Shown one piece after another: positions 28,181-51,500 of a DNA stretch of 63,737 nucleotides (its first letter is position 1; each line of letters begins with the position of its first letter). The translations under genes and the position numbers were made by a program. The stretch is taken from contig JACPBX010000004.1 of the NCBI GenBank assembly GCA_016180085.1, positions 1-63,737 of the forward strand, read 5' to 3'. The notes beneath the pieces are model-generated. The model ran no database searches. It was not told the DNA's origin and saw nothing but the letters and a program-made list of their open reading frames with translations. This DNA is from Candidatus Woesearchaeota archaeon (GTDB lineage: Archaea; Nanobdellota; Nanobdellia; Woesearchaeales; UBA10216).

Positions 28181-28747
28181 TTGCTGCTAAGTGACAGGAG
28201 CATAAAAGAAGCCATAAGAGAAGGCAAAATCGTCATCAAGCCGTACTTCGAGGACTGCGTCCAGCCTTCCAGCATTGACATCCATCTTGACAGCAACTTC
28301 CTTCTTTTCAACAAGGCGCAGCATGCAGTCATTGACGTGAGGCAGAAGCAGGACGGACTGATGAGGATGGTTGTGGTAAAAGAAGGCGAGCCTTTCATAC
28401 TGCATCCTGGCGAGTTTGTGCTTGGAAGTACCCTGGAATTTGTTAAGATGCCTAACGATATTGCAGCAAGGATAGAGGGCAAAAGCTCCCTCGGCAGGCT
28501 CGGCTTGCTGATTCACAGCACTGCAGGCTACGTTGACCCGGGCTGGGAAGGCAACCTGACTTTGGAATTGAGCAACGTCTCCCCACTGCCCATCACGCTT
28601 TACTACAAAATGAAAATCGGCCAGCTATCGTTCGTGAAGATGACAACGCCTGTTGCCAAGCCATACGGCAGCAAAGGATTGGGCAGCCATTATCAGGGCC
28701 AGAAAACGCCTGTTGCCAGCAAGTTCTATGAAGAGTTTAGGCGCTGA
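28181..28747 (+). CDS. dcd: dCTP deaminase
   Basis: MLLSDRSIKEAI..GKIVIKPY...VQPSSIDIHLD...HPGEFVLGSTLE...EGKSSLGRLGL. TTG start. Confidence 0.9.
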   Translation: MLLSDRSIKEAIREGKIVIKPYFEDCVQPSSIDIHLDSNFLLFNKAQHAVIDVRQKQDGLMRMVVVKEGEPFILHPGEFVLGSTLEFVKMPNDIAARIEGKSSLGRLGLLIHSTAGYVDPGWEGNLTLELSNVSPLPITLYYKMKIGQLSFVKMTTPVAKPYGSKGLGSHYQGQKTPVASKFYEEFRR

Positions 28748-29408: not shown

Positions 29409-29448
29409 TTTGGCACTTTGCTCCCCAACTGTAATTTTCCTGGTATTT

Positions 29449-30775: not shown

Positions 30776-31078
30776 ATGCCGGATATGGAAAAGTCATTGC
30801 TCAGTGAATTGTCGAAAGAACTGGAAATCCCGGAAAAAAGAATATTAGACGAAAGCCTGCACGTTTTTCTGGAAAAGGAGCTTAGAGACGCGTCTGCGGA
30901 GATTTTGAAAATCAAAGCACAATTCAACATCTCAAGCGCAAAGGAGCTAAAGGGCAGAATAGAGAAAGGCGAAGTGGAAGAACACCCCGCCTGGGAGCAG
31001 CTCATTTACTGGGAAAACCTTGAAAAGAGGGTTAAGGCGGTCAACGATTGGATGCAGAAATTACGTACCTCGAGCTAA
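30776..31078 (+). CDS. small helical protein, putative antitoxin partner of the next ORF
   Basis: 100 aa, charged and helical. It overlaps the downstream ORF by 31 nt, a two-gene TA-like layout. Confidence 0.45.
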   Translation: MPDMEKSLLSELSKELEIPEKRILDESLHVFLEKELRDASAEILKIKAQFNISSAKELKGRIEKGEVEEHPAWEQLIYWENLEKRVKAVNDWMQKLRTSS

Positions 31079-31413
31079 AAGGCATTGCCTTGCGGGAATT
31101 TCCTGACATTGTAGTTTCTGCCACCACCGCCAGAGGGCCCTTAAACGCGGCAAAAAACCTCCGGATATTTTTCGTTGACGACTCTTTCCTAGATGTATGG
31201 TTAAGCGATGAGAAATATTCCTACCACTGGCAGCGCAAAGATGGCAAAATCTTCCGGCACGATAATGCTCCGCATAAAAAGCACAAAGGCATAAAGACTT
31301 TTCCAAAGCACTTCCATGACGGCTCTGAAGGCGATGTGAAAGAAAGCGAACTTGGCGATAAGCCTGAAGTTGCGCTAAGGGAGTTCCTGAACTTCGTAAG
31401 GAAAAACATTTAA
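31048..31413 (+). CDS. DUF6516-like protein (my recollection: the family named TumE toxin in RefSeq)
   Basis: YSYHWQRKDGKIFRHDNAPHKKHKGIKTFPKHFH carries the YxYHW / DNAPH / HxH pattern I associate with that family. There is no ATG in the frame, so a TTG start is assumed. Confidence 0.5.
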   Translation: MDAEITYLELKGIALREFPDIVVSATTARGPLNAAKNLRIFFVDDSFLDVWLSDEKYSYHWQRKDGKIFRHDNAPHKKHKGIKTFPKHFHDGSEGDVKESELGDKPEVALREFLNFVRKNI

Positions 31414-32422: not shown

Positions 32423-32659
32423 CTATTCCGCAGAAATCATCACTATCGTATCGCCTCTCAGGAAGACAACGCCAAGTTTTCTCACAACTTCGCCGTTGCT
32501 TCTCTCTTCAGCGTCTTCCAGAACTACGTTGACGTGAATGTCAAATGCCTTGAGCTTTCCGGTATATTGCTTGTTGTTCTTGAGCTCAACAATGACTCGC
32601 TTGTTTCTTGCATTGTTAAGCGCATCAAGCGGTCTTGCTTCATAATTTGCTTCTGCCAC
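32423..32659 (-). CDS. Sm-like archaeal protein (SmAP/LSm)
   Basis: RPLDALNNARNKRVIVELKNNKQYTGKLKAFDIHVNVVLEDAEE...LGVVFLRGDTIVMIS contains the Sm1 and Sm2 motifs. A GTG at 32659 is preceded by ggggg. The track start at 32740 is too far upstream. It is adjacent to L37e, as in many archaea. Confidence 0.85.
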   Translation of the reverse strand: MAEANYEARPLDALNNARNKRVIVELKNNKQYTGKLKAFDIHVNVVLEDAEERSNGEVVRKLGVVFLRGDTIVMISAE

Positions 32660-32748
32660 AACAGTTCCCCCCAACAAAAGTACCGTGATAAATCTGCAAT
32701 AAATATTAGTTCCTGCTAATATATAAAGGTTGTGGCACAATTGCCCGC

Positions 32749-33198
32749 CTATTTTACTATGTCGAGCACCAGCATCGTTTCTGTTCTGGCAACTCCGCCT
32801 ATCCGCTTGAGGTTTCTCAGCAGGATGCTGCCAAGCTCTTCGGCGTCTTTCGCCCGGACCTTTATCAGTATGTCATTGGCGCCTGTTACAGCATTTACTT
32901 CTGTAATGAAGGGCATTGCTGCAAGCCTCTTTGAAATTTCGTCATGTTCCTGGTAAGCAATATCAATCAGCACGTAAGCAGTCAATGGCTTGTTCAGCTT
33001 GCTGTAGTCAAGCACTGCAACGAGCTTCTTGACAATACCGAGTTCTTTAAGCTTCCTTATCCTGTTGTGCACGGTTGTCTGCGGCATGCCGAGAATTGCG
33101 GCGAGTTTTTTAGTCGTCAGGCTGGCGTCCCGTTCCAGGTGCTCAAGTATCGAGAAATCCTTGCTGTCAGGCTCAAAATTTTTACCTATTTCCCCCAT
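32749..33198 (-). CDS. Lrp/AsnC-family transcriptional regulator
   Basis: HTH LAAILGMPQTTVHNRIRKLKELGIV plus a C-terminal RAM-like domain. Confidence 0.85.
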   Translation of the reverse strand: MGEIGKNFEPDSKDFSILEHLERDASLTTKKLAAILGMPQTTVHNRIRKLKELGIVKKLVAVLDYSKLNKPLTAYVLIDIAYQEHDEISKRLAAMPFITEVNAVTGANDILIKVRAKDAEELGSILLRNLKRIGGVARTETMLVLDIVK

Positions 33199-33598
33199 AT
33201 TTGGAAAATAATTTCACTGCTATTTAAAAATATTGCTATTTTTAGAATAGTTTACCAAAATTTCGGCAATAAGTATTAATAGTTTGCAGCATTGCTAGAT
33301 TGTTTTCAAGCATTAGCCAGTGGAATCTTAAAATGATGAGGCAAGGGGGCATGATTTTCGGCTTAGCAGGAGCTTTTGCGGAAAAAGCCTTGTTTATGGA
33401 AAAATATCCGGAGCAGGTTGCAAGATTTCCACAAGCACCACAATTTTTGCGGCTTTTTGGCAGAAAGGCATAAGTAGAATGAAATGGCAATAAGTGGCTA
33501 ATGAGCGGTTCATTCCGGCTTTATATAGAGCATATAACGAACCCATTTAAACCGAAACAGGTTACCGTAAGCCAACAATAAGTGTTGGGTGTTTGGGC

Positions 33599-34672
33599 AT
33601 GAAGAACAGCTTTAAGTCTGGTTTTGTGATGTTCATTATTGTTTCTATTGCTGTGCTGCTCATGGCTACTGCGTCTTATGCGCAGGCCCAAGGGGGATCA
33701 ACTAGCGGTTGCGGTGATGGAATTTGTATGAATGTTGGCTGCCTGACCTTAAATTGTGCAGCGCCGGAAACGTGGGAAAACTGCCCTCAAGACTGCCCCG
33801 CAAGCTGCCATGACGGCTTCAAGAACCAGGACGAAACAGGCATTGACTGTGGTGGGAACTGCTTTGAACCAACCAAGCCGGAGTGGTGCGATGGCTTTGA
33901 TAACAACAAAGACTGCATGGTTGATGCTAACTGCACGGCAAAATCTGGCATAGGTCCTGGAGGCGCTGTGACTCAGCCGGTTTCTCCATTGCCTGCGCCA
34001 AAGCAGCCTGAGCCCGGTTGCTACGATGGCCATAAGAATCAGGATGAGCTGAGTTACGACTGTGGAGGTGTGTGCGTAATTGATATCCCTGAAGTCTGCG
34101 ACAACAAAGACAACGACAGAGATTGCCAAGTAGATGAGGGCAACGCATGTTCACAGGAAACCCAACAGGAAGCCACTGAACAACCTGTAATCGTTTCCGC
34201 CACGCCTGAAGTTTTGCCTGCGCCAGTTCCTGTTTCTGCACCAGTGCCTGCGCCAGAGAGTCAGCCCGAGCCGGGCACGCCACTTGAAGTGCCAGCGACG
34301 CCTGCTAAGGAAATGCCGGCAATTGGCGACTCTGACATTTCTTCACTTACCGATGGGGAGCTTGACGCGTTCATAGAGCAGAATGGCGGTGCTGATTTCA
34401 TTAAGCAGGTGAAGAAACTTGCGGAAGAAAAAGGCATCTATGTGCCAAAGGAGGAGTCTGATGTGCAGTTTGGAAGGAAATATGTACTGTACTTTTTCAA
34501 GCATCAGTCAGAATTGGCTGCTGAGTTTGAAGGGAAGGAGCGGACTGAAGCTGATTTTGTGAACTTGCTGAGGCACTTCAGCGAAGAGGCATACCCAAAT
34601 CCTGAGCCAAGGCCGCAAGCGCAAGGCTTTTTTTCAAAGGTTAAGTCATTTTTCAAAAGACTGTTTGGGTAA
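33599..34672 (+). CDS. secreted Cys-rich protein with CDGxDN..DC..DE-type repeats and a Pro-rich linker
   Basis: Signal peptide MKNSFKSGFVMFIIVSIAVLLMATASYAQA. Repeats: CHDGFKNQDETGIDCGGNC / CYDGHKNQDELSYDCGGVC and CDGFDNNKDCMVD / CDNKDNDRDCQVDE. Confidence 0.7.
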   Translation: MKNSFKSGFVMFIIVSIAVLLMATASYAQAQGGSTSGCGDGICMNVGCLTLNCAAPETWENCPQDCPASCHDGFKNQDETGIDCGGNCFEPTKPEWCDGFDNNKDCMVDANCTAKSGIGPGGAVTQPVSPLPAPKQPEPGCYDGHKNQDELSYDCGGVCVIDIPEVCDNKDNDRDCQVDEGNACSQETQQEATEQPVIVSATPEVLPAPVPVSAPVPAPESQPEPGTPLEVPATPAKEMPAIGDSDISSLTDGELDAFIEQNGGADFIKQVKKLAEEKGIYVPKEESDVQFGRKYVLYFFKHQSELAAEFEGKERTEADFVNLLRHFSEEAYPNPEPRPQAQGFFSKVKSFFKRLFG

Positions 34673-34699
34673 CTTGTAAGCTGATATGCTACTGTTGCG

Positions 34700-37600
34700 A
34701 TGGGGAAGCTTAGCATGGCACTAAATGCGAAATCACAGAAAAAATGTAAAGCGTGGAACATAGGGAACAGAGTATGCATCCTATTTGTCATGCTGCTATT
34801 TCTTGCACAGCCTGTTTATTCAGCATCAGTACTTGGAGATTTTGGAAAAGTAGAAGCATCCAATGAGCAATCACAGGCACAAGCAGGCGCAGTTGAACAA
34901 CCAAAAGAAGACACAAACACGCAACAACTAGCTCTTGCTACGATGCTTGTAGAAGAAACAGGACTGGAACAACTGCAGGAAACCGCACAAATCCCAATAG
35001 GGCAATCACAAGGCATTGCTTTAACCAATCCAGCAGAAACAAACTCAGATACGGGCGGCATTGGCGCTGCGGCAGCCGGAATTATTCGGGATCAGCAGGC
35101 ATCAGGCTCACAAACAGAAAACATCAGCGCACAGGTAAGCCTTGCAGATTGGAAGCTTGCAAAAGAAGTAGAGAGTACCAACCCGTGGGAGCCGAAAAGA
35201 GTAACGAGCGTATTCTCAAAAAATGACTATGGATCCTTCCTTTGGACAAGATTGGAAAGCCTCTATCAGAGCCACAACATCAAGTGGCAATGGCATGACC
35301 CCAGCGGCGCATTTTATTCTGAAGCAACCCACACAACAAGCAACCCAAAAGATTCCGGCTATGACTACTGGGGATGGTACAAGACATGGGGCTGGGTATA
35401 CATAAAGGATTTCACACCCCAGAACAAGCCCGGCTTATGGAACGTCAAATACTTTGTTGACGGAAGCGAATGGATAAGCGCAAACTTCATCGTAAGCTAC
35501 CTATTCAAGGAAAACCGGATGACGAAGGCAGTTGACGGAGACAACAATCCCGGCACAGCCGTGACAGAGTTCTCAGCCAATGACGACATTGCATACGCAT
35601 GGTACAAGCTCGAAAGCGTTGCAGATGCCCTCAAACTGAAGCACAAGTGGTATGCGCCGGATGGAAGCCTATATTTTGAGACTACCCCGGCAACATCGCA
35701 AGACCCGGGAAAGGATTCGTACTGGAGCAGCCTGAAAGTCTCACATGGAATATACATCAAAGGCACTCCAGCAGAGACAAAATGCGGAAACTGGAGAGTA
35801 GAGGCATACATAGATGACAAGCTAAAATATGATCAGGGATTCACAATCAAAGACTGCGCCCCACCAGTTGAATGCAAGGCTGAAGCCCTTGAGGCATGGG
35901 TAGGAAAGGATGGAGAGATTTACAACAACATAAAGACGCACCACAAATTCATAAATAACGAAGGAAAAGCGCTTAACTACAACATAAACTTTGATCTGTT
36001 CGGACCAGACGGAACAAAAGTCGGCCAGTGGTCAAGCAGCGGAAAGCTTGACCCGGGATGGCAGGTGGTGTGGTGGGTGCAATATGGGGTTCCATCGGGG
36101 GGCTGGAAGCCGGGAAGCTACACCTCAAGAGCCTCAATAGACGGATACTGCGGGAACTATCGCGTGCAAAAGTCAAACGAGGCATACCCTGCAATACCAG
36201 CGCCAGCGCCACCGCCAGGGGGAGGCACCACAAACTTCTGCGACGGGGCAATCAGTGTAAAAGTCACCGACAAATTCAGTAACAGCCTGCAAAGCGTAAA
36301 GGTTTACCTTGACGGGAACCTGGAAGGGACAACCAGTGCAGAAGGCAAAAGGAACATAGTCATAGCTGATAACGGCTGCGGAAAAGTGCACGCCGTAAAA
36401 GCAGTCTGCCCGAACGATGCACTCTGCAGCGAGAAAACCACAACAATAGACTACGATGGCGATGCCAGCGCGCTCGGCTTTGTATGCAAATGCCCAGGCA
36501 CAGTGCCAGGACTTGACATACAAGCCGGTACGGACTCATTCAAATACTTCAAGGACTCCGACATAAAGCTCAACGCGCTGATAAAGAAAGCAGATGGCAG
36601 CACAGTTGCAAATTCTCTGCTTACAATCTATGACCCGTTCCTGGGCGCAACAAAGTTCTTCAGCCTTGCTGAAGGAGCGCTCTCATACGGCTCAAAGGCA
36701 GCCCTGCCGGGATTGCAGGCATTCTTCCTATCAGGATACAAGCAAGGATTCCTCCCTGGGCTTTCAAAAATAAAAGTTGTCGTAGAAGACTTCACAGGCG
36801 AGATAACTGTGCAGGCAACCCACAAGGACGGAACATCGCTCAAATCAGCGCTCGTTTACCTTGACGACCAGTTCAAAGGCGCGACGGACAGCACGGGCAG
36901 CAAAACCTTCAGCGCAGAAAAAGGCAAGGTAAGCGTTCTTGCGCTTAAATGCCCCGGAGCAAAAACTGACGGGCCATACTGTGCAGGAAAAGATGTCGCG
37001 GTAATTGACAATAACTTCATACCGCTAAGCTGCGACTGCGGCCCGGAAGGAACGAACAAGAAAGGAACCATTCTGCTCCAGCTCAAGAGCAAAAACTGCC
37101 CGCCTGAATTCCAAAGCTGCCCGATAGGAAACGCTTTGGTTTCGGTTGACGGCCAGAAAATAGGCTACACGCCTGGGTATGGCTTCATGGAGCTGCCAGG
37201 CCTCAAATACGGAAACAGAAAAGTGGAAATCACAGGACTTCTGACAGACAACGAAGACGACGAAACGCCAGAACTCAAAAGAAACATAACAAGGATAACT
37301 GTAGACGCACCATTTAAGCACATACCGCTTGAACTAAGGGGCGAGGACTTCCAGGTCATAAAAGGCGCTGAAGCGGAATCGATGATGAGCGCCGAGAACG
37401 CAAGCGAGCAGTTCATTATCATTCCAATACTGATATGGGTGGCGTTAACCGCATGGGACGCCAAACAATTGCACGATTGCGAGAAAAAGTACGACTATGA
37501 CCCGTTAGTGGTTGAGGCAGAGTGCTGGGATGAAAGGCTGTTCTTAGCAAGCAACTTCATACCATTAGGCACCATATTCAGCAAAGCTGGGAAAGGAATC

Positions 37601-38629
37601 AAAGGCCTTGTGCACGTTCTTGAGTTTGTTGATGGCAAATGGGTAAGGAAAGCGGTTGAGGTAACAAGGATTGGAGAGGCTTTCCAGCACGCCGTCAGGC
37701 TTTTTGACCGCGTGCATAACGTCTATAAGGTAGTTTCGGAGTATGGCGGCAGGGCATTGGGCTATGTTGTCCGTAAAACAGGTTTGAAAGAAGTAATAAT
37801 CGTAGTCAATCATGTTGAGAGCATCATTCTCAGAGACTGGGATGCTGCTGTGAAGGCGGTGCAGCTTAAGTTCCTGGGAAAAGATACTTTACAGATCGGG
37901 AATACGATCCTTAAAAAAGCCGATTTTGTAGGAGAATCGCTTGCAAAAACTATTGCTCGCATAGATGGGGAAATTGGTGAGGCTTATGCTGAAGAAGCAT
38001 TTAAGCAATTGGCAAAAAAAGTTGACCCTAACATTGCAGTAAATTTGATAGATAAAACTGCGCTTAAAGCCTTTATAAATTCAGAAGAGGAGATAGTCAC
38101 GGCAGGCTATAGAATGACGTTCAAACCTAATGGGAAAAGCATCAATGTTTTTGCCAAAGATGACATAACGCATGCAAGTCAATTAGGCGAAATAGACAGG
38201 TTATTTGACTTTCAGGGGAAGCCAGTTGTTATTGAAGCCAAGCTAAAAGATAATATAGTATATGATCCGCGTCATAAAATAGATCCTGAGAAGTTTCCTT
38301 CAGACATAAATCCAACTGCATTACCTCACATCATGAAAGCTACTCAAGAGCTTTATGTTGAAAAGGTTCTTAAAAATTCATTGCCTGAACTTACTGAGGA
38401 AGAATTAAAGCGCACCATAAGGCCGCAATATGTTGTTGCCGGGCCTTCTGATGTTGTGAAGGGTTTTGTTCGCGATCCTGTGAACCCTGCACTTCCTTCT
38501 GCTAGTTGGCGCTCTATGACTGATGACTTGATAAGAGAAGGCTATGAGAATCCTTTGCCATTGTCTTTTGTTGAGGATTTTGCTTCGTTGGATAAGATGG
38601 CACAGGATTTGGCACGCGGAGGTAATTAA
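34700..38629 (+). CDS. large membrane-anchored surface protein (1309 aa) with a post-TM C-terminal region carrying a PD-(D/E)xK-like motif
   Basis: N-terminal signal/anchor, then beta-rich repeats (VKVYLDGNLEGTTSAEGK, ALVYLDDQFKGATDSTGSK). A TM segment FIIIPILIWVALTAW lies near aa 900. The roughly 390-aa tail contains GEIDRLFDFQGKPVVIEAKLKD. Confidence 0.7.
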   Translation: MGKLSMALNAKSQKKCKAWNIGNRVCILFVMLLFLAQPVYSASVLGDFGKVEASNEQSQAQAGAVEQPKEDTNTQQLALATMLVEETGLEQLQETAQIPIGQSQGIALTNPAETNSDTGGIGAAAAGIIRDQQASGSQTENISAQVSLADWKLAKEVESTNPWEPKRVTSVFSKNDYGSFLWTRLESLYQSHNIKWQWHDPSGAFYSEATHTTSNPKDSGYDYWGWYKTWGWVYIKDFTPQNKPGLWNVKYFVDGSEWISANFIVSYLFKENRMTKAVDGDNNPGTAVTEFSANDDIAYAWYKLESVADALKLKHKWYAPDGSLYFETTPATSQDPGKDSYWSSLKVSHGIYIKGTPAETKCGNWRVEAYIDDKLKYDQGFTIKDCAPPVECKAEALEAWVGKDGEIYNNIKTHHKFINNEGKALNYNINFDLFGPDGTKVGQWSSSGKLDPGWQVVWWVQYGVPSGGWKPGSYTSRASIDGYCGNYRVQKSNEAYPAIPAPAPPPGGGTTNFCDGAISVKVTDKFSNSLQSVKVYLDGNLEGTTSAEGKRNIVIADNGCGKVHAVKAVCPNDALCSEKTTTIDYDGDASALGFVCKCPGTVPGLDIQAGTDSFKYFKDSDIKLNALIKKADGSTVANSLLTIYDPFLGATKFFSLAEGALSYGSKAALPGLQAFFLSGYKQGFLPGLSKIKVVVEDFTGEITVQATHKDGTSLKSALVYLDDQFKGATDSTGSKTFSAEKGKVSVLALKCPGAKTDGPYCAGKDVAVIDNNFIPLSCDCGPEGTNKKGTILLQLKSKNCPPEFQSCPIGNALVSVDGQKIGYTPGYGFMELPGLKYGNRKVEITGLLTDNEDDETPELKRNITRITVDAPFKHIPLELRGEDFQVIKGAEAESMMSAENASEQFIIIPILIWVALTAWDAKQLHDCEKKYDYDPLVVEAECWDERLFLASNFIPLGTIFSKAGKGIKGLVHVLEFVDGKWVRKAVEVTRIGEAFQHAVRLFDRVHNVYKVVSEYGGRALGYVVRKTGLKEVIIVVNHVESIILRDWDAAVKAVQLKFLGKDTLQIGNTILKKADFVGESLAKTIARIDGEIGEAYAEEAFKQLAKKVDPNIAVNLIDKTALKAFINSEEEIVTAGYRMTFKPNGKSINVFAKDDITHASQLGEIDRLFDFQGKPVVIEAKLKDNIVYDPRHKIDPEKFPSDINPTALPHIMKATQELYVEKVLKNSLPELTEEELKRTIRPQYVVAGPSDVVKGFVRDPVNPALPSASWRSMTDDLIREGYENPLPLSFVEDFASLDKMAQDLARGGN

Positions 38630-38630
38630 A

Positions 38631-39581
38631 ATGTCTGAAGGAACTTATTTTGGTGTGAAGTTAAAGAAAGATGCTATAACAAGTAATGAGGCGCTTGTTG
38701 GCGCCTTTATGAAGTACTTGGGTTGTTTTGACAACCCTCGCATTTGGGAGGTTTTGCTTGGTAAAGTTGGAGAGCGGTTTGGAGAGACCACCTATAAACT
38801 CGGTGACACGAGTAATCACGTGTATGATAATTTGCCTAGGAAAGCTGTGCACGATTTTTTGAAGAAAGCAATTGCCGATAACCCTGGTGTTGAGTTTGAC
38901 GGTATCCGCAGTTACGGACTGGCTCTTTTTGATGCAGATAAGTACGGTTTTCCTGCTGACACGATAATAGCTGGTAGGAACGGACTTAACTGGCAGGGTC
39001 TGAGCCCGGGTAATTACGGTCTTGACAGTAAAACATACGGTGTTTCTGATGGGGTTTGGGACCTTAAACAGGATGACAGAAAGGCAATTCCTCTGATTGA
39101 AGTCCAAAGAATGCTTTTTGACCTGTTCAAGCGCATTATTGAGTCCTTTGACCCTGTTTTGCTTACTTTCAGGAGAGAAAATTTGGAAGAATTATGGCAG
39201 TCCACGGTGTTTTACTTCAGGGATCCTTACCTCTTTTGTCTGGATTTAAAGCCTGGCGATGATGTTAATGACGTTGGTATTGTGAAAAAGCTCAACGAAA
39301 TTAAGTCTGTTTTGAGTCTGAGTGAGCTTGAGCGTATTTTGAATGAGAATAGTTCAAGTTGCAATTATGAGGTTTGGAAGTCTTCCTACGGTGGCATCGG
39401 TATTTTGGGTCGGCTTGTTTATGAGCGCCCTTCAAAGGGCATAACTAGCGGGATGGCTGCCCTTCGAAGGGTTGTGCGTGAGAGGGGCATTGACTTGCCT
39501 GAAGGCGAGATTGAGAAGTGGGCGGGTTATGAGGAGGATTTTATCAGGGATATGGAGAAAAGAGGGAAGGGTAAGGGCTGA
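38631..39581 (+). CDS. hypothetical cytoplasmic protein (candidate immunity/partner protein)
   Basis: The ATG lies 1 nt after the upstream stop. It has no signal peptide and shares the low-GC composition of the upstream gene's tail. The track start at 38544 overlaps that gene and is unlikely to be real. Confidence 0.55.
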   Translation: MSEGTYFGVKLKKDAITSNEALVGAFMKYLGCFDNPRIWEVLLGKVGERFGETTYKLGDTSNHVYDNLPRKAVHDFLKKAIADNPGVEFDGIRSYGLALFDADKYGFPADTIIAGRNGLNWQGLSPGNYGLDSKTYGVSDGVWDLKQDDRKAIPLIEVQRMLFDLFKRIIESFDPVLLTFRRENLEELWQSTVFYFRDPYLFCLDLKPGDDVNDVGIVKKLNEIKSVLSLSELERILNENSSSCNYEVWKSSYGGIGILGRLVYERPSKGITSGMAALRRVVRERGIDLPEGEIEKWAGYEEDFIRDMEKRGKGKG

Positions 39582-39588
39582 TGCGTTT

Positions 39589-42500
39589 ATGAACCAAGGC
39601 TCGATTAAGGCAATCCGAAGAGTAATTGCGGGAGGCGTAGCAGCGCTTATTGTGCTGCTGCTTATCAGCTTCCTGCCGCTGGAAAAGTGGAGCCAAACAG
39701 CTGCTTACAGCCAAAACACTCCTGCAGCAACGGATAGGGAAGAGGACGCAGGCTTGCGAGAGAAGGGCATGGCAGAAATAGCCTTGCGGCATGGAGAACC
39801 TGTAACGCCGCAGCCTAAAGCCAAGCTTGGGAAAGGACAGTCGGAAGCTGCTGTGCCAAGGCCTGAAATCATAGAGCCTGTACTTGCGAATGAGATGAAA
39901 GCAGAAGGTGGGAAAGGAAAAGAGATAGAAGTTCTGATAAGATTTGCTGATTCTGATGGAGAAGGTGCGGCGGGTGTGCTGGCAACCACGGCCTCGCGGA
40001 TAGATTCGGAAAGAACAAGGATGAAAGAGGTTGCGGAAGAGCTTGAAAAGGCCGGCGCAAAGGTGGAAGGCGCTTATCTTGTAGGAAACTTAATAGTGGC
40101 AAAGGTAAAAGCCAGCGAGCTTGAGAAAATAACAGAGAACAAAAAAGTGGAAATGATTTCTGCAAACAGGGAAGTTCAGGCAGTGCTGTCGGAAAGCGTT
40201 CCACAGATAGAGGCAGACGCGTTCTGGAACGCAGGCTTCAAAGGTAAAGGCGTAAGGGTTGCAATACTTGACACGGGCATAGACTCCAGTCATCCGATGC
40301 TCGCAGGAAAGGTAATAGCAGAAAAGGCATTCACAGGGGAAGACCACACTACTGACCTTAACGGGCACGGAACCCACGTTGCAGGAACAGTAGCCGGCAC
40401 AAAAGCAGCAGGGGGGAGCTATGACGGAGTTGCGCCTGATGCATTGTTGATGAATGGGAAGGTGCTTAGCGACGATGGCTGGGGGAGCACAGCAGGCATC
40501 GTGGCAGGGATAAACTGGGCAGTAGACCCTGACGGTAATCCGGAAACAGACGACGGAGCCAAGGTGATAAGCATGAGCCTCGGCGGAACGTACAACAACC
40601 CATACGATCCTATGAGCATGGCAATAAAAGAAGCTCTTGAAGCAGGCGTTCTTGTCATAGTTGCTTCGGGAAACTGCGGTGCATGCGGCCTATGCGGAGG
40701 CTACAAAGGCGTGACGACTCCGGGAACAAGCCCATGGGCTTTCACAGTGGGAGCAGTTGATAAGAGTAACGAGGTTGCGTGCTTCTCAGGAGGAGGCGTT
40801 ATAGATGAGGTAGGCGTAAAACCTGACATAACGGCGCCAGGTGTTGGAATAAAATCCTCTGTGCCGGGCGGGTACAGCGCATACCAGGGAACCTCTATGG
40901 CAACGCCTCACGTTTCAGGAGCCGCAGCGCTGCTGCTGCAGAAAAATCCGGCATTGAGCCCGGAGCAGATAAGGAGCATACTTGAAAATACTGCGACAGA
41001 TAGGGGTGCCACAGGCAAAGATACGTCCTATGGTGCAGGAATACTGAACCTAAGCGCAGCATTCAGGGCGAAGGCAGCCATAAAGGCAACGAGCAGGATA
41101 TCTGCGGACATGCTAACGAGTGAGGAGCTAAACGAGGAAATAATATTCTACAACTTCGGAAGCGAGCCGCTTTACATAAACGTGTCCCATGACAGCTGGA
41201 TAAGATTCACAGGGCTGCCTGAAAGCCCCTTTCGGATAGAACCAACGCGCAACATCACAACGAAGTACAGCATAGCGGCTTTAGAAATCGGGGCAGGATT
41301 GCATAACGGCAAAATCGAGGTGAATACGAGCGATCAGGACCTGCGAAATGTTTCGGTAAGTATCAGCATACGCGTATTTGAGTCCACAGCCCCGAAATTT
41401 GAGGAAGTTGCCTTCCCTGCTCTTGCCTTCTCAAGAGAGGAGCTGGAGCTTGCCACAAGCGTAACCGACAATGGGATGGTAAGCAAAGTAATCGCGAAAG
41501 TTAAATCACCTGAGAATGCATTTCCGCAAGTTGAGACAGGGCTTGAAAAGATTGATGAAAAGAGATGGCGAGGCCTTTTGAGGATGCCCCTGGTTTCTTC
41601 ATCCAAACAGGCTGTGCTGGAAGTGACTGCTTCAGACAATGATGGCCACGCATCAGTGTTTGAGAAGGGAATGGAAATAACCAATCTTGTAGTTGAAATA
41701 AAGGGCAGCGATAACGCAACACAAGGCAAAGCAGTGGAGATAGGTGCAATCTTTGTGAACACTGCAGATGCAACGAAAGACGTACTTGCTGAGTTTGAAA
41801 TAGTAGACTCACTCGGGATAACAGCATTCAGGAGCGTTGACGGCTCAGTAAACCTGCCGACGGGCTTTAAGGGGATTTTTTCGGTAAAATGGACGCCTGA
41901 AAGCTACGGCAACTACGTTGTCAACGTAACAATCAAAAGCCCAAGCGAAGAGATAATGGCGAATTCAACGGAATCACTCACCATAACCCTCCCGCAGTGG
42001 GGCAGCATGCAATCAGTAAAGCTGCCGGAAGCAATTACAAAAGGAGAAGCGCTCAGCTATGAGGTGCAGTTCGGAAACAGCGGGCCAGCGCCTTTTGAAG
42101 CAATAGCCGCACTATCAATATTAGATGAGCACCAGAAAGTAAAGCTTGTGGTGCCCTCTGAGGAAAAGGAAGTGCCTGCAGGAGGAAGCATAACATTTTC
42201 CGCATCAGCGGAAAAGCTATCGCTAAGCGGAGGCAACTACACGGCAGTCCTTCAGGTATTCTACGGAAACAGGGAGGAGGTTGTTGAAAAGCCACTCAAA
42301 GTTACAGCACCAGAGACGCTTGGGATAACATTAGGGCTGGCAAAGAAAGAAGTTGAGTACGGAAGTGAAAACCTGCACTACACCGTAACAGCACGCAACA
42401 CAGGGGCAATGCCTTTGTTTGCAGAATTCAACACCACTTTGCGCAACAGCGAGGGTGATGAAGCATATTCTGCAAGGTTCAACGGCTCGGAAGTAGCGGC

Positions 42501-45500
42501 AGGAGAATCGCTTGGAATAAGTTCAGAGATAAACACGACAGGCCTTTCCGTAGGAAGCTATTTGCTGACCGTCAATGCCAATTACGAAGGCAATAGCGTA
42601 AACACGCAAACTCAATTCAATATTGAGGATACAGCGCCGCCTTTGCTTGGGCCTGTAACCCTGCCAAAAGCTGTGAGGCGGTACGAACCGATTGCAGCAG
42701 AGCTGGGCGCGCTTGATTACAGCCCGCTGGCGAACATAAGTGCGAAGCTCATAACAGGGGAAAAGAAGATTCTTGGCGAAAGCAATGCAAGCCCTTCGAG
42801 AGGGAATCCGGTTATTTTCAACACGGCAGAAACAGGAAAGCACCTGCTTATTCTGGAAGCATGCGATGCCTACAATAACTGCAACACATCAGAAAACGCG
42901 ATAACAGTGGAAGAATGCCCAGGCAGGAAGGCACTAATAATAAATGCAAGGAATGATCAAAAGACGGTAAGGCCACTTATTGAGGGAGCGCTCTCAAGCA
43001 ATGCTTGCATTTACGAGTACAATACCACAAATGGAGCCTTACCGGATAGCAGCTATCTCGCTAATTTTACTGCAGTAATATGGACATCAGGAAACAGCCA
43101 AAGGGCGGTTCCGCAGCACTACCAGAGCCTATTGCTGGACTACATACTCGGAGGGGGCAGCCTGCTTGTTGAGGGAGCGGACATAGCGTTCAGGCACAGA
43201 AACGACGAGTTCATGCGGAACATAACCCACAGCGTCCTTGCTGAAACCATGACAGTGAGTCTGCCAGGCTCGCCGGAAGCATCCCCACAGGAAGGCAAGG
43301 AAATAAACATCACAAGAGCTGCACCTCATCACATCACTTTTGCGCTGCCGGAAACGTTCAGCTATCGACCACCGGACCAAAATAGGGATCCTGATGAGGT
43401 GCTTCCCCTGGATGAGGCAGACGGGTTGCTAAGGTGGGGTGAAAGAGATGGCTATGCAGCAGTGGCATACGAAACGAGAGTGGAAGGGCTGAACATTACA
43501 GAACCTGAAGGGCACTACAAAACCGCATTCCTGCCACTTGACATAGCAGGACTAAACGGGGAAACTGCAAAAAGAATCCTCGCAGATACCACAGAGTGGC
43601 TGCTGCTTGAAAGCTCATTGTCAGATATAAGGGTCGAAGTAACCCACGGCCGCCTAGTAGAAGGAGATAATGAAATCAACCTGACAATTACGGAGAAAAC
43701 CGGTCCTGCAACTACAGCTGAAGTGATATTTGAAGTTGACAAGAGCAAAGTTTATTCGCAGGAAATTGAAATGCCTGAAGGCAGCAGCACAATACGGCTT
43801 GCCGTGCCTTTAACAGCAGGCGAGCGCACAATAAGAGCAGCTGCAATCGCACCGATATCCGAACAGGACTACAAAAACAATGAGGTGGCCTACAAGGCAT
43901 ACGTGGCTCCCAAACTGCCAGATATCATTGTTCAGGGCATCGCCTACGCGTATGAAGCGGCAACCCAGACCGCAGAAATAAATGTAACCGCAACCAATAG
44001 AGGGGGCACCGCGGCAGAAACAGACATCACGGTTTTCATAGGAGATAATGCCACGGGCACAGCTCATCTCAACCTGCAAGCCGGAGGGGAGGCAAATCGC
44101 TCATTTAAAAGCAGAGCAGCCGCAGGCAAGAAAAAAATAACGGCAAAATCTGAAAACGCCGAAGACGCCAATTATGCAAATAACCAGCTGACAATAGAGG
44201 CAAACTTCTGCAGCAAGGAGAGAATACTTGTCGTAGATGACAATGACACAGAATTATACGCTACAAGCGCCCCGAGCAGCGCCCCTGAAATAGCAAGAAT
44301 ACTTGATGAAAACGGCTACTGCGCAGAACTATGGGGAGAAGCGGAGAAAGGGCTGCCAACCAGCCTGAACGCATTCCCCCTGGTTGTATGGAGCACAGGG
44401 GACTACCTGCAAGCAATCACAAGCAGCGAAGATGCCGAACTAATCAGGGGCTACAGAAACAGCCTCCTGCTTGAAGGAAGCGACATTGCAGCAGACCTGG
44501 CAGGAAGAGGGAATGAATCGCTTCTGCGCGAGATAAGCGGGACAGCATTCGCCTCGGACGTTCTAATACCGTTAACAGAAAACCGCACACTAAACAAGAA
44601 GGAACACCCTATACTTGAAGGCGTGGGGAATCTTGAAATTGGAGGCAACAGGTCGCCATACCCTGACGCTGTTGAAGCCCTTGATGCCGAAGCGGTTGCA
44701 GAGTGGCAGAATGCGAACGGCACGGCAGCAATAACCGCAAGGACAGTAACCGACCCGCCCTATGGCAGGAAGCAAGCGTACTACGCGTTCTCGGTAGACG
44801 GCATAACAGACCCGGCAGTCATGGAAAGGCTCGTGCTCAACACGGTGCAGTGGCTGCTCAGGCCTAACAGCGTCCCACAGCTGCACAACTTGTCAGACAT
44901 TACAGTGAATGAAGGAGAAAATGCATTCATGGAAATAAACGCCACAGATGCAGATAACGATACCCTGAGCTACGCTGTAAACGATTCCAGGTTCGTAAAG
45001 GGGCAGCAGGGGCAGCAACAAAACGCGAATGTGTTTGTTTGGAGCGCCAGTTACAACGACGCAGGCAATTATAAGGTATTAGTCTCTGCCAGCGACTGGA
45101 AAGATTCCGCAAATGCGACAATCAACGTAACGGTGCTTGGCGTAAACAGGCCTGCTGTTTTCAACAACACTTTTGAAAACATAACCACCAGCGAAAACGG
45201 CACTGTTGTGCTGAAGTTGGTGCCATACGATGCAGATAACGATCCTCTTGAGCTGGAGGCTCTTATGGGTGCACGTGAAGTGCCGCAGCATTACTCAAAT
45301 GTGGCGCTCTTTGGCGCTTCGTTTGATTCCGGAAGTGGAACATTTGTTTGGACGCCTGACTTCAACAGTTCGGGTGAATACGTTTTGAGGGTTGACCTGC
45401 TTGAGTACTACATATCGCCGCTGGAGGGCATGATGCTGAGAAAGCTGGTTAACATAACCGTGGCAAATTCTAATCGGGCGCCTTCTTTTACTTTTGAACC

Positions 45501-48500
45501 CAATGATTCAACTTCTATTGGTGCAGAAAAAATTGAAATTACCATGTACGAGGGGCAGACCAAGAACTTCAGCGTGATAGCGACAGACCCTGACAGTGAC
45601 ACACTTGCTTACACATGGCTGCTGAATGGGGCAGTAGTTTCAACAATCCAAAACTTCAGCTTCAGCCCGAAGTACAACGAAAGCGGAGATTATAACCTCA
45701 CCATAATTGTCAGCGACGGCCAGGCAGAGACAAAGGCAGACCTGCTCATAACAGTGCTGGATGTTAACAGACCAGCTGCGATAAAAGGCGTCCTCATATC
45801 GCGGCCCCTTAAGAATACGGCAAGCGCAACCGCAATCATTTTTGATGAATTTAACGATGGCAGCATTAACAGCTCAATTTGGATCCAAAGCGACTGGGAT
45901 GGAGGAGTGCTTGTAGAGGCTGATGGCGCTCTGCATTTCGAAACTGGTTCTTCCAATGACAGGCAGATTAGGACAAAATCAGACCTGGGCTTGCACGAAA
46001 ATTTTACCATAGCATTCAGGATTAAAGTCGACTATGTTTCCGGTGACAAAAATTCCGGTTTCTGGCTTGGCAACCTGGCTGAAGGCCAGCCAAGTGTAAG
46101 CAGCGGCCACAGGGGCTATTACTGGCAGTTCCACGGCAAGACGCAGGGGTTTAATATAGTCGGTCTCTATGACAACAATAGCTCATCGCTGCACGGCAAG
46201 TACAGCCCTCCCAATTGGGAGCCGGGGAAGTGGCACGACCTGAAGGTTGAAAGGGCAGCTGGAGTGGCGAGATTCTACTTTGACGGCGCCCTGGTCGGCA
46301 CAGACAGCACCTTTGCCCCGATTTTGAGCGAGCTTTACTGGAACAGCGGCAGGACATGGAAAGACCCGAGAGAAGGCGAAGATGCCAGGATGAATGTAGA
46401 TGACTTTTCAGTAAGTTCAACCAGTGATGAAACTGATGGATCAGTCACGCCAGACTTGGTTTATGAATTTATCAACCTGTCAAACACATCGGAAGTCATT
46501 ATGTACAATAACGAAACAGGGATTCTTAGCATTCTGGCAGAAGACCCTGATGGAGATGTTTTGGCGTACACCTGGCTTTTGGACGGCATTGCTGTCTCAA
46601 CAAGCCAGAACTTCACATTTGCACCAGAGGAAAACGAAATCACGAAACATAACCTTACAATCATTGCGAGCGATGGGAAGTCAGAAACAAAAGCGTCATT
46701 TATCTTGGCTGTCCTTGAGCCACCCGATTGCAGAGCCAATGTTGATGCGAGGCTGTGCGACTTCCAGCTTGGCGTCTGCAGCGGCGGCAGCGAAACATGT
46801 GACAGCAATGGCAAATGGCCCGGCTGCACGGCAGCAACATACCTAAGCTACAGCAGCAAATACGAAGCTGCTGAGACAAGCTGTGACGGGTTCGACAACG
46901 ACTGCAACGGCCAGATAGACGAAAACCGTGTCTGCAATACCGCTCCGCAACTGCAGCAGATTGAAAACAAAACCACACAGGAAAACTCTCAGTTGTCGTT
47001 CACTGCTGCAGCAACCGACAACGAAGGCGACAGCCTGACTTACAACGCAACCAACATTCCGCAGGGGGCTGCTTTTGACAACGCCACAGCAGCTTTCAGC
47101 TGGGCCCCAACATTCGAGCAGTCGGGCGTCTATACAGTAGCGTTCAACGTTTCAGACGGCTTGCTGTCCGACTACGAAACCATAAACGTAACAGTAGCAA
47201 ATGTTAACAGGCCGCCTGTTTTTGAAGGCTTGGCAAACAAGACAGTGCCTGAGAACTCAACCCTGAGCTTTGTTGCGAATGTTGCAGACCCTGACGGCGA
47301 TGCGGTTGCATCGCTGGTGGTTTATGTTCCCCAAAGGCTCAGCAACGCCACGCTAAACAAGTCCACGCATGAGTTCAAATGGACTCCAAGCTTTGACGAC
47401 AGCGGCACTTATCAGGTCACGTTTTCTGCAAGCGACGGGCAGCTTTCTGCAAACGCTTCAATCAACATTACAGTGCTCAACGTCAACAGGGCTCCTGCCA
47501 TAATGCTGCTGCTCCTTGACCCGCCAGAGCTCGTCATGGGAGAGGGTGAGACAAAGACATTCGCGGCAGATGTTGGAGACGTGGATAACGACAAAGTTGC
47601 GGTAACGTGGAAAATAAACGGCGAAACAGCCTCAACAGAGCCGCAGCTGACCTTCTCACCAGAATATGACAGCAGTGGCACCTACACCATTGAGCTGCTC
47701 GTCAGCGACTACGCAGAAACAACCACCACAGCAATGACGCTCACAGTCCAGGACACTATGGAGTGCGAGCCGCTAGTTGGCAAACAGCCTTGCAAGTTGC
47801 AACAAAGCGTGTGCAAAGGCAGCTCGGAAACGTGCAGTACCGGGGGGAAGTGGCTTGGATGCGGCGCACCAACCTACCTCGGCTACAACGCGAAATACGA
47901 GGAAAAGGAAACCCTCTGTGACGGCCTTGACAACAACTGCGACGGCCTGGCTGATGAAGGGTTTGAGGACGTTGACGGCGACAAAATCGCTGACTGCGTT
48001 GATGATGACAACGACAACGACGGGGTAAAGGATGACGTGGATGAAGTTATAGGTGATGAGGGCAACGTCAACACAAACGTCAACGACTTGAAGCTTGAGG
48101 TGGGGAGCGGTCCTGACGAGAACAAGCCAAAACTTAGGGAGGTAAGGTTCAAGGCAGGCGGCAATGACCTTGCAAGGTTTGATGTCGACTTTAGCACGGC
48201 GAAACTTAACATGCGCAGCATCATGGTTAAGCAGCAGTCTGCCGCTGATAAGAAGGGCTACACTATTTTCGGCATGGCTGGCGCGGAGCATGACAAAACG
48301 CTTTACGTTGACAGGCTTTCAAGCGGCTCAAACTCGGTCTGCGTGAAGGACGCTGAGATTAATGATGTTGCCGAGATAAACAGCGGCTGCACCGGAACTG
48401 GCGAAGTTTTGGCAATATGCGGCGCACAGCCACCTTCCTCACAGCCAACACAGCTCCAGTGCTGGATGGAATCCGGAAGGTTTGCTGTCGCCCCTCTCAA

Positions 48501-51500
48501 GCATTCTGGCGTGGTTGAGGCGTGCTGGGACGTTGACGGTGACGGCTACCTGCCCGCTGGCTGTGAAGGCGGCATGGACTGCAACGACAACGACAAGGCA
48601 CTGAATCCGGCAGCAAAAGAGGTCTGCAACGGCAAGGATGATGACTGTGATGGTGCCGCTGATGAGGACAGGGTGTGCAACACGGCTCCCGAATTCGCAG
48701 CCACAGGTAGCAAGGAAGTAAGCGAAAACGCCAAGCTCGAGTTTACGGTGTCCGCAACGGACAAGGAGAAGGACGAGATCACATATTCCGCTTCCAGCCT
48801 GCCCAAAGGGGCTTCCTTTGACGAAAAAACAGCAGCTTTCAGCTGGGTGCCAGCGTATGACCAGTCAGGGATTTATGTTGTAACGTTCACTGTCAGTGAC
48901 GGGCTGGCTTCTGGTAAGGAGGAAGTCAAAATCACAGTGCTCAACGTCAACAGGGCTCCTGAAATCATTGGTGCAATTGGCAACAGGGAGGTGAAGGAGA
49001 ATGAGGAGCTCAGCTTTACAGTGCAGGCAGAGGACCCTGACGGAGACAAGCTGGCTTGGACTGTAACGTACTCCAAAGAACCCGCTGGTGCGAAAGTTGA
49101 GCAGCTGGGCAGCTCCCTCAAGTTCTCATGGAAGCCTGGATTCGAGCAGTCAGGCACATACGCTGCCGAGTTTGCAGCCAGTGATGGAAGCTATTCGGCA
49201 AGTGAAACGATAACCATAACAGCGCTGAACGTCAACAGGCTGCCTGTGATAGAGCACATACTGATAGACCCGCCAGGCCTTGTGATGGGAGAGGGCGAGA
49301 AGAAGACCTTCACCCCGACCTTTTCAGACGCCGATAATGACGCGCTCACGGTTTCCTGGAAGGCGAATGGAAAAACCGTTTCTGCAAATGACGTGCTTGA
49401 GTTCTCCACAGGCTATGAGAGCAGCGGAGAGTACACTATCGTGTTTGAAGTTAATGATGGTTCGGCAACCAGCTCCACAACGATGGCGCTTACAGTACAG
49501 GACACGCTCGAATGCGAGGGCAGCCAAAAGAAGGCCTGCCCGCTGCAGCAGGGCGTGTGCAGCAGCTCATTCGCTAGCTGCGTAAACGGCAAATTTGCGG
49601 ATTGTGGTGGCAGCGCCAGCTACGGCAGTAAGTACATTGCCAAGGAGGAATTCTGTTCTTTCAAGCCAAATGAAAACAGCTGCCTGGCGTTGTGCGACAC
49701 GCTGGATAACGACTGTGATGGTGCCGCTGATGAGGACAGGGTGTGCAACACCGCCCCGAAGCTGCAGGCGATAGGGGAGAAGAGCGCCAAGGAGAATGAG
49801 TTGCTCACATTCACGGTTTCTGCAACAGACAGTGATGGTGACAAACTTAGCTTCTCAGCTTCAAACCTGCCGCAGGGCTCAGCCTTTGATGCCTCAACTG
49901 CAACGTTCTCGTGGAAGCCAGCCTTTGACCAGGCAGGGACTTACAAGGCCAAGTTCGCTGTCACAGATGGCCTGCTCTCTGCTGAGGAAGAACCATCCAT
50001 CACTGTGGCGAACACTAACAGAGCCCCAGCCATAACAGGCACCACAGGCAGCACGGCGGTAAAAGAAACAGAAGAGGCTGTCATTACAGTTTCCGCATCA
50101 GACCCTGATGGCGACTCATTAACTTATTCTGTTGATGATTCCAGATTTGCAAATGACAATGAAAAAAGCAGCACGTTCAGGTGGAAGACAGGCTATGATG
50201 ATGCAGGAACTCATTCAGTAAAGGTTACTGTTGCCGATAATTCTGCGGACGGCACCCTCACCACATCAACGGACGTTACGGTGAAGGTTGAAAACGTCAA
50301 CAGGCCTCCTGTGATTAGCCAGCTCCTGCTTGACCCTGCAAACCTTGAAATGAACGAGGGCGAAACAAAGACGTTCACGCCCAGCCTGGCGGACGATGAC
50401 GGCGATGCCCTTTCGGCAACATGGATGGTGGATGGCAACGTCGCGTCAACGGAAAAGGTGTTCACGTACAAGCCCGGCTTCCTTGACAGCGGCGAGCACA
50501 CGGTTGAGCTGGTAGCCAGTGACCAGGCTGATGCCGCGACAACAAAAATGCTGCTGACGGTTTTCGACACCATGCAGTGCGAGCCAGGCAAAGCTGCAGG
50601 ATGCCCGCTTCAGCTCGGCGTGTGCCATGGAAGCGCGGCAGCGTGCACAATGGACGGCAAAATGCCTGCGTGCGGGGCAGCCGACTACAGCACAGCCGCA
50701 AAGGGCAGCGGCAGCTATGCGCCAACCGAGGAATACTGCAGCCTTGCCCCAAACGAAAACAGCTGTTACATGTATTGCGACGGCCTGGACAATGACTGCG
50801 ATGGCCAGAAAGACGAAGATAGGGTGTGCAATACAGCTCCGCAAGCAGGGAAAGCAGGAATGAAGGAAGCAAGCGAAGGGAAAGAATTGGAATTTGGGGT
50901 CGCAGCAGAAGACAGCGAAGGCGATACGCTGGCGTTCAGCAGCAGCGACCTGCCCAGGGGTGCAGCCCTGGCCGAATCAGGCACGCTCAAATGGACGCCA
51001 AGCTATGAGCAGGCTGGCGAATATGACATCCCGGTCACTGTATCCGACGGGCTGCAGCATGCCGCCATAACTGTGCAGGTAAGGGTCAGCAACGTGAACC
51101 GTGCGCCTGAGGCAGGCATACTAATTGAGCCGCAGGGCACGGAAGTAAAAACTGGCGAGTTCAGGCTTCTGAGGGCAAATGCAAAGGACCCGGACGACGA
51201 CACGCTGTCCTACACGTGGACGCACAACGGACTGCTTGTTTCAAAGTCTACTTTCTACAAGTTCGCGCCAGAGCCGACAACCGGCGCAACGCACGAGTTC
51301 AGGCTAACAGCAAGCGATGGCGAATTGAACGCGGAAGCAACCGCTGTGCTGACTTACGCCAACACATGGGTATGCAATCCCGGCGAAACCAGGCCGTGCC
51401 AGCAGCAACTTGGAGTATGCGCAGGCAGCAGCGAAACATGCGCCTCAACGGGAAAATGGCCGGAATGCACCGCAGCAACATACAGCAGCTACAGCAGCTC

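Follow-up and report, generated by a model that had tools for sequence, protein, structure and literature searches.

An exchangeable tail and its partner gene in a Woesearchaeota surface-protein operon: a candidate membrane-tethered, nuclease-like module on the cytoplasmic side

When the C-terminal part of a long surface protein is replaced between relatives together with the gene behind it, does that part act as a toxin on other cells, or does it stay inside the cell that makes it? The question is raised by a 63,737-nucleotide (nt) stretch of a Candidatus Woesearchaeota archaeon metagenomic assembly (contig JACPBX010000004.1 of GCA_016180085.1; hereafter the window), in which a gene for a 1309-residue membrane protein is followed by a gene for a 316-residue protein, here called its partner. 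An earlier interpretation made from the letters alone (the sequence-only reading) had described the 1309-codon open reading frame (ORF), its signal or anchor segment, one internal transmembrane (TM) helix, an EID…EAK motif in the tail and a partner gene 1 nt past the stop codon, all of which we find where it had put them, and had proposed a polymorphic toxin–immunity-like module, leaving open a surface sensor coupled to an intracellular nuclease. Our analysis indicates that the distal tail and the partner very probably travel as one recombining cassette, and leads us to favor, tentatively, a nuclease-like domain that is tethered to the membrane on its cytoplasmic side and matched to a cognate partner, the two being exchanged as alleles.

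The window was compared with related loci (L001, L005, L007–L009, L012, L013, L016 and L017), of which L009 is the closest relative and L001 belongs to a more distant genome. Against L009, blastn finds an unbroken match of 80% identity from 32425 to 37860, none from 37861 to 39636, and a match that resumes at 39637 with 78–85% identity; the longest DNA match to L001, which runs from 37403 to 39561 at 71%, is complementary to the L009 matches. The same break is seen in the proteins, since ten syntenic proteins are 67–90% identical to their L009 counterparts and residues 1–1050 of the large protein 85%, with values of 47% for the distal tail and 33% for the partner. In column bootstraps, the ectodomain is nearest to L009 (1000/1000) and the proximal tail to L012 (938/1000), and the distal tail and the partner are each nearest to L001 in 1000/1000 replicates. 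Because the nearest relative switches to L001 while both flanks match L009, the 1.8-kb block at 37861–39636 is very probably a recombining cassette that is exchanged between lineages. DNA similarity to L012 stops at a different point, 38084, and therefore several independent exchanges have taken place within the tail.

The cassette exists as deeply divergent allelic types. One class comprises the window, L001 and L008/L007, with tails 67–76% and partners 57–63% identical, and the remaining partner types are about 30% identical to everything else. Across six loci, distal-tail identity correlates with partner identity (r = 0.83, over 15 locus pairs that are not independent of one another). The idea of a swapped C-terminal cassette with a downstream partner is borne out by these comparisons: the block has been replaced between close relatives, its phylogeny is unlike that of the rest of the gene, tail and partner diverge together, and neither is invariant or vertically inherited in the related loci. 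A recent transfer of the cassette was considered and rejected, as the nearest known cassette is only 71% identical in DNA.

The base composition of the block was part of the original argument for a foreign insertion, and it required correction. The drop in G+C (GC) content persists when sliding windows are used, but it is milder than counts of single lines had suggested, with 0.415 over 37850–39400 against a window mean of 0.496 (standard deviation 0.034); in 300-nt windows, GC is 0.36–0.43 between 37800 and 39300 and 0.47–0.57 in the upstream ectodomain. Only 3.3% of equal-sized windows are as low in GC as 37850–39400, and all the others lie at 18.7–20.7 kb. At third codon positions, GC (GC3) is 0.34 for residues 1051–1309, lower than in any of 68 comparable 260-codon windows drawn from 32 other genes, and 0.456 for the partner, at the 4th percentile. 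The low-GC patch had also been said to coincide with the tail and the next gene. It does take in the distal tail and the partner; it begins, however, inside the tail at about residues 1051–1054, some 130 residues past the TM helix, and the first 130 residues of the tail are therefore compositionally normal. The dip recurs in every orthologous locus examined, with GC values for ectodomain, distal tail and partner of 0.49, 0.42 and 0.44 in L009, 0.46, 0.42 and 0.41 in L001, 0.49, 0.42 and 0.42 in L012, and 0.40, 0.32 and 0.29 in L013. Low GC is therefore a trait of the tail–partner module and not peculiar to this genome, and foreign DNA specific to the window is rejected on the same grounds.

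The position of the tail relative to the membrane is central to its interpretation. A Kyte–Doolittle scan of the 1309-residue protein identifies the N-terminal hydrophobic segment (windows 18–28, score ≥ 1.76) and only one more, FIIIPILIWVALTAW, at residues 905–919. From a signal peptide followed by a single stop-transfer helix, we predict an N-out, C-in orientation, in which the tail is likely to be cytoplasmic. Fourteen invariant Cys residues are found in the ectodomain vs 2 Cys in the 390-residue tail, and Arg makes up 1.4% of the residues of the ectodomain, against 4.6% of those of the tail and 6.3% of those of the partner. A second TM helix at residues 946–960, which would place the tail outside the cell, was rejected because the segment is short (about 14 residues) and carries K, E or R in orthologues. 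Most of the juxtamembrane tail is not modeled by AlphaFold, its predicted local distance difference test (pLDDT) score being below 50 for residues 938–1059. The same juxtamembrane stretch (37457–37860, residues 920–1054) is among the most conserved regions in close relatives (75–85%), with invariant C927 and C942 and a KxGKGxK motif.

Whether the distal tail is a nuclease was addressed with an alignment of the domain in eight sequences over 130 residues, with identities down to 23%. Ten columns are invariant, among them G1093, E1094, Y1137, E1164, D1166, L1168, K1174, E1179 and K1181, and the signature GE…Y…EID-x12-ExK is present in all eight known members of the family, so that the D…ExK pattern first noticed in this one protein holds throughout. 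The conserved G, E, E-x-D and E-x-K lie at the canonical positions of PD-(D/E)xK enzymes, including the acidic residue in the first helix, and identity peaks around the motifs and is lowest in the segments between and beyond them. In the AlphaFold model of the isolated domain (residues 1077–1264), pLDDT averages 69 and reaches 74–88 in ten-residue blocks over the four strands up to the ExK strand (domain residues 41–100). The model consists of a long helix with the GE pair, five β-strands, the last two of which form a hairpin with EID and ExK, and two α-helices, after which DSSP assigns only a two-residue bridge. This succession of elements is compatible with the αβββαβ core of the restriction-endonuclease fold. 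Given the two-residue turn of this hairpin, D1166 would face E1179 across the two strands and E1164 would face K1181, all four on the same side of the sheet.

The D-x12-E-x-[KR] spacing of the tail is the same as in Escherichia coli YraN (EIDLIMREGRTTIFVEVR) and in the DUF4143 domain encoded by another gene of the window, 19336–20820 (EVDFVLKFNDLYYPFEVK), and hhalign puts the tail hairpin in register with both YraN (pairwise E 0.003) and this DUF4143 domain. The resemblance to the YraN/UPF0102 (PF02021) and DUF4143 (PF13635) families, the latter presumably a member of the PD-(D/E)xK clan, extends to a hairpin of the form E-[IV]-D-x12-E-x-[KR] with identical spacing and to a preceding helix with G..E. 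In contrast to these families, the tail has extra strands between helix 1 and the hairpin, and it matches the hidden Markov model (HMM) of neither, with no match to PF02021 even at E ≤ 10. We consider a restriction-endonuclease fold slightly more likely than not for the distal domain.

The partner is a 316-residue protein with no hydrophobic segment. Its ATG at 38631 is separated by one base from the TAA stop codon of the large gene (38627–38629), lies just downstream of a Shine–Dalgarno-like GGAGGT located within the preceding gene, and is backed by orthologues that begin with MSEGT, MAEST or MSENT. Partner identity is 63% to L001 and only 31–33% to L009 and L012. The partner has no match in Pfam, NCBIfam, PADLOC or PHROGs, nor in any Imm family, and sequence-profile searches of the Protein Data Bank (PDB) with the partner and full-length alignments returned nothing. 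When tail, partner and the orthologues of both were scanned against the four collections, the result was only DUF6997, at E 0.07–0.14, and scattered one-off matches, none of them usable. A distant homologue of the partner is found in L016, where a 305-residue gene follows a tail that is 30–38% identical (hhalign probability 96%, E 1.5e-9). Two further loci depart from the simple arrangement. In L012, three tandem partner modules stand behind the tail protein within 7006–9385 (7006–8004, 8009–8914 and 8996–9328+); the copies are about 38–40% identical to one another, and the second and third are joined into a single reading frame. In L017, a 242-residue gene at 9809–10537, following the tail protein P0011, has no detectable similarity to the partner, which points to either replacement or divergence beyond detection.

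Relatives of these proteins are few. Apart from the protein of the window itself, word-indexed searches returned a single tail fragment and two relatives of the partner, and four orthologues (39–76% identical) when the full-length protein served as query. A HMMER scan of the tail against 1.84 billion representatives retrieved P0006, P0001, the more distant P0010 and P0011, and one spurious repeat match, while scans of genome, metagenome and viral contigs gave a single locus that was already known and none in viruses. Therefore, as far as these searches reach, this is an orphan family found in a few Woesearchaeota, and the relatives that carry names are recorded as 'Candidatus Woesearchaeota archaeon'. 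In P0010 and P0011 the ectodomain is of another kind, built of CarboxypepD_reg-type repeats, but both proteins retain the TM helix together with the distal motif and the juxtamembrane signature AWD..DC..x14..ECWDE..NFxPxG; the tail is thus the constant part of the family, and it is the ectodomain that varies in distant members. The operon order is likewise conserved in Woesearchaeota: a secreted Cys-rich protein, the 1309-residue protein, the 316-residue cytoplasmic partner and a giant surface protein with an S8 subtilase domain. The same giant S8 gene comes after the partner in L001, L005, L009 and L016, and in L016, which has a different genomic neighborhood, the order of tail protein, small cytoplasmic gene and giant S8 protein is kept.

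How might such a module work? It is possible that the tail remains in the cytoplasm of the cell that produces it, tethered to the membrane, that its distal domain is an enzyme with a restriction-endonuclease fold of the YraN/Hjc-like kind, and that the partner is a cognate binding protein, regulator or inhibitor that restrains this tethered enzyme. In such a scheme, tail and partner would travel together because the two must match, and would be inherited and exchanged as a pair. The ectodomain may couple an event at the cell surface, such as contact with a host or neighboring cell or the attachment or entry of a virus, to the activity or accessibility of the enzyme, and the allelic diversity may reflect a conflict or recognition function; conflict with viruses, hosts or kin could be its driver. 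The pair would then work like a nuclease and its inhibitor, in the manner of a toxin–antitoxin pair, on the inner face of a surface receptor and not as an exported toxin.

Several observations weigh against this proposal. The structural models are of moderate confidence only (pLDDT 53 for the whole tail and 69 for the isolated domain), and the hhalign probabilities are not significant (10.6% for YraN and 0.1% for DUF4143). The tail has no significant match to a nuclease family in Pfam, NCBIfam, PADLOC or PHROGs, a profile search of the PDB with the tail domain gave nothing below E 0.5, and Foldseek searches of the PDB and BFVD with both AlphaFold models gave no match at E ≤ 0.001, the top matches being unrelated folds; McrC and Cas4 appear at E 0.5 or worse and GNAT proteins with a TM-score of about 0.2, which we regard as noise. 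Since profile, HMM and fold searches alike lack a significant match, a nuclease fold is plausible and unproven. In addition, we infer a physical interaction between tail and partner from the co-variation of neighboring genes, a pattern that simple co-transfer would also give. About eight members of the tail family are known, all of them from metagenomes. Finally, the charges beside the TM helix, read directly from the sequence, are net negative on both sides and do not follow the positive-inside rule; they are uninformative, and the topology therefore rests on the signal peptide and the single TM helix.

A true polymorphic toxin–immunity system, along the lines proposed by the sequence-only reading, would have the C-terminal nuclease cut off or transferred into a contacted cell, with the partner protecting the producer and its kin; for an episymbiont of the DPANN group, transfer might possibly occur through membrane fusion or a bridge with the host or a competitor. 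Polymorphic toxin systems with C-terminal toxins of restriction-endonuclease fold and adjacent immunity genes have been described in detail (Zhang et al. 2012, PMC3482391); such toxins are common there, one class of the PrsW type has membrane-embedded N-terminal parts, and classical polymorphic toxins are rare in archaea (PMC3482391). The locus shares with them an N-terminal secretion signal and a long repeat or stalk region (here an 860-residue, Cys-rich and β-rich ectodomain), as well as a C-terminal module of about 250 residues, with the E, D, ExK signature, that is replaced by recombination with a junction inside the gene. The recombining cassette takes in the next gene, only 1 nt away, which co-varies with the module to give divergent, cognate-looking pairs; the extra partner copies of L012 recall immunity arrays, and in L017 an apparently unrelated gene takes the place of the partner. 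However, membership in this class did not hold up. The stop-transfer helix between the stalk and the would-be toxin is conserved in all members, no releasing peptidase or pre-toxin domain (HINT, ZU5, PrsW or caspase type) was found in the Pfam scan, and neither tail nor partner has an HMM match to Tox-REase-1 to -10 or to Imm families. The variants are alleles of one tail family, not unrelated toxin folds, and the tail is retained where the ectodomain differs, which is the reverse of the toxin pattern; tblastn finds no orphan or standalone tail cassettes in the window or in eight related loci. Moreover, the proximal 130 residues of the tail are among the best-conserved parts of the protein, and a partner of 316 residues exceeds the usual size of an immunity protein. 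We therefore consider an exported toxin unlikely. The alternative that had been left open, a surface sensor coupled to an intracellular nuclease, suits the anatomy better.

A different possibility is that no catalysis is involved and that tail and partner form a docking module, the cytoplasmic foot of a surface apparatus that contributes to assembly, anchoring or signaling for the giant S8 adhesin. The D…ExK residues would then be structural or would serve in binding, and the block would be fast-evolving and recombining without any function in conflict. The PD-(D/E)xK fold has been reused for non-catalytic roles, and the strict linkage with the giant S8 gene, the lack of detected nuclease homology for the tail and a low GC that is intrinsic to the module in all loci are in line with this idea. 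It is nevertheless difficult to reconcile with acidic and basic residues that are strictly invariant at the exact catalytic positions while their surroundings fall to 23% identity, and neutral drift leaves unexplained both a sharp-bordered block of 33–47% identity beside flanks of 82–86% and the switch in nearest neighbor; we rate it as improbable. An artifact, with the mosaic arising from chimeric assembly of the metagenome and the GC dip from amino acid composition only, is extremely unlikely. The window is indeed a metagenomic contig, and K, I and V are abundant in the tail. Nonetheless, two further sequencing runs yielded contigs that match the window at 100% identity over 34616–44607 and 34616–38657, and because this identity extends across both junctions, an assembly chimera is rejected. 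Each allelic type also recurs in several samples, it is GC3 that falls and not GC at first and second codon positions alone, and the distance of the cassette from its nearest known relative means that it is no splice of known strains.

Two other systems help to place a tethered nuclease-like domain with a cognate partner among known arrangements. VARTIG modules of Thermococcales (Makarova et al. 2021, PMC8416519) are archaeal surface proteins with recombining C-terminal regions and variable downstream genes. They resemble the present locus in having a large β-sandwich surface protein with a signal peptide, a C-terminal region that is shuffled between lineages and variable genes downstream; their function is unknown, and roles in conflict or self/non-self discrimination have been proposed (PMC8416519). 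In VARTIG, however, the hypervariable part is an extracellular distal Ig domain (arCOG07710-type) with a DNNxxxGG C-terminal sorting signal, whereas here it is a predicted cytoplasmic, enzyme-like tail with one dedicated partner, the C-terminus reads ...DLARGGN, and the host is a member of the Woesearchaeota within DPANN. These features set the two apart, and no sequence relationship to VARTIG was detected, no direct comparison with arCOG07710 having been made. SNIPE, a bacterial membrane-bound nuclease that cuts phage DNA as it is injected (bioRxiv 10.1101/2025.11.03.685801), is also a single-pass membrane protein with a cytoplasmic nuclease; its tether prevents self-damage, and its non-catalytic parts are diversified. 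It provides a precedent, by analogy, for a tether that keeps a cytoplasmic nuclease harmless. Unlike the protein described here, whose TM helix comes after a 900-residue ectodomain, SNIPE carries DUF4041 and a GIY-YIG nuclease behind an N-terminal TM helix and lacks both a large ectodomain and a partner gene, and the tail has no match to DUF4041 or GIY-YIG in Pfam or PADLOC scans. The resemblance is one of working principle and not of kinship.

The genetic pattern that we describe is itself known from conflict and recognition systems; what distinguishes this locus is that the swapped part is predicted to face into the cell. A conserved surface-protein operon here holds a sharply bounded, co-varying pair of enzyme-like tail and partner, with clear allelic types and a candidate active site whose residues do not vary. 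Should the tail prove to be a nuclease that the partner regulates in an allele-specific manner, the logic of a toxin–immunity cassette would be applied at the cytoplasmic side of a receptor, two orphan families would gain a function, and there would be a handle on how symbionts sense or police their contacts. Even with an inactive tail, the locus would remain a record of a recombination hot spot within a gene for a surface apparatus. DPANN archaea live attached to other cells, and their interface proteins and conflict systems are little known. In this context, it is tempting to imagine, as a long shot, an archaeal 'inside-out' polymorphic system, in which a DPANN episymbiont has a surface adhesin with exchangeable nuclease/partner specificity alleles at the cytoplasmic face of the membrane. 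Such a system would serve in allorecognition between fusing or bridged cells, with membrane merger required for the tail to enter another cytoplasm and survival limited to cells that have the cognate partner, or its nuclease would be triggered by virus entry, with the partner as the target of viral counter-defense. If true, this would amount to a new class of archaeal conflict system made of two orphan protein families.

Table 1. Coordinates of the operon and of the parts of the exchangeable module in the window (aa, residues of the 1309-residue protein)
Feature	Position	Strand	Basis
Upstream operon gene, 359-aa secreted Cys-rich protein	33593..34672	+	ORF with N-terminal hydrophobic segment; syntenic and 70% identical in L009
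1309-aa type I membrane protein, whole gene	34700..38629	+	Full-length orthologues P0006–P0009, 39–76% identical
Signal peptide or anchor, aa 1–42, QPVYSA site conserved	34700..34825	+	Hydropathy; Q37, P38 and A42 invariant
Extracellular β-rich, Cys-rich ectodomain, aa 43–904	34826..37411	+	14 invariant Cys; weak Big_7 match; 86% identical to L009
Single stop-transfer TM helix FIIIPILIWVALTAW, aa 905–919	37412..37456	+	Sole internal hydrophobic window; kept in all members including P0010 and P0011
Proximal tail, aa 920–1054, juxtamembrane region (AWD..DC-x14-ECWDE..NFxPxG, KxGKGxK)	37457..37860	+	75–85% identical to L009, L012 and L001; GC3 0.52 (normal)
Low-GC cassette, very probably recombinant: distal tail, partner gene and first 48 nt of giant gene	37861..39636	+	blastn, nearest-neighbor bootstraps
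Distal tail, aa 1055–1309, PD-(D/E)xK-like domain and C-terminal helices	37861..38629	+	Invariant residues, AlphaFold model
Helix α1 motif GEIGEAYAEEAF with invariant G1093-E1094	37967..38002	+	Alignment; helix 5–32 of domain model
Motif GEIDRLFDFQGKPVVIEAKLKD, predicted β-hairpin, aa 1163–1184	38186..38251	+	D1166 (38195–38197), E1179 (38234–38236), K1181 (38240–38242)
Partner gene, 316-aa cytoplasmic orphan protein, translationally coupled	38631..39581	+	ORF, orthologue starts
Giant downstream surface protein, ~4260 aa, S8 subtilase domain	39589..52374	+	Peptidase_S8 match 2e-57, aa 219–484

At the two ends of the operon, the secreted Cys-rich protein has no match in Pfam and NCBIfam scans, and the giant gene has its likeliest start at 39589, the first ATG (M40) of a long ORF that opens at 39472. 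The giant protein (39589–52374, forward strand) consists of a signal anchor, the S8 subtilase domain at residues 219–484 and then thousands of residues of repeated modules, including Cys-rich 'CDGxDNDCDG' segments. Compared with L009, its first ~150 residues are clearly less conserved (56–74%) than the remainder (72–98%).

The wider neighborhood includes genes for AsnC, LSM, ThyX, thymidylate kinase and dCTP deaminase, together with several features outside the cassette. These neighbors and the named relatives assign the contig to DPANN archaea of the Woesearchaeota type. An overlapping gene pair at 30776–31413 (forward strand) encodes a 100-residue DUF7342-like protein followed by a 121-residue TumE toxin (Pfam E 3.5e-19), an arrangement of the toxin–antitoxin type whose products are 89% and 80% identical in L009. 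The lowest GC in the window (0.34–0.40) is found at 18.7–20.7 kb, a region that holds the AAA_14 and DUF4143 ATPase gene at 19336–20820 (reverse strand); this gene was probably acquired, and its DUF4143 part reads EVD-x12-EVK, with a spacing equal to that of the tail motif. The dCTP deaminase gene (28181–28747, forward strand) contains no intein in the window, while in L009 the copy at 3829–5847 is split by an intein that includes a LAGLIDADG domain, and the window matches L009 on either side of this 1.46-kb insertion. The reverse-strand region 28737–30690 contains two ORFs (249 and 413 residues) that are absent from L009, in which the genes on either side lie next to each other, indicating an insertion or deletion of ~2 kb between these close relatives; the 413-residue ORF has no Pfam match. 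Finally, a 684-residue fusion protein encoded at 22093–24147 (reverse strand) joins an amino-acid permease (residues 50–435) to an S-adenosylmethionine-dependent methyltransferase domain (residues 500–630).

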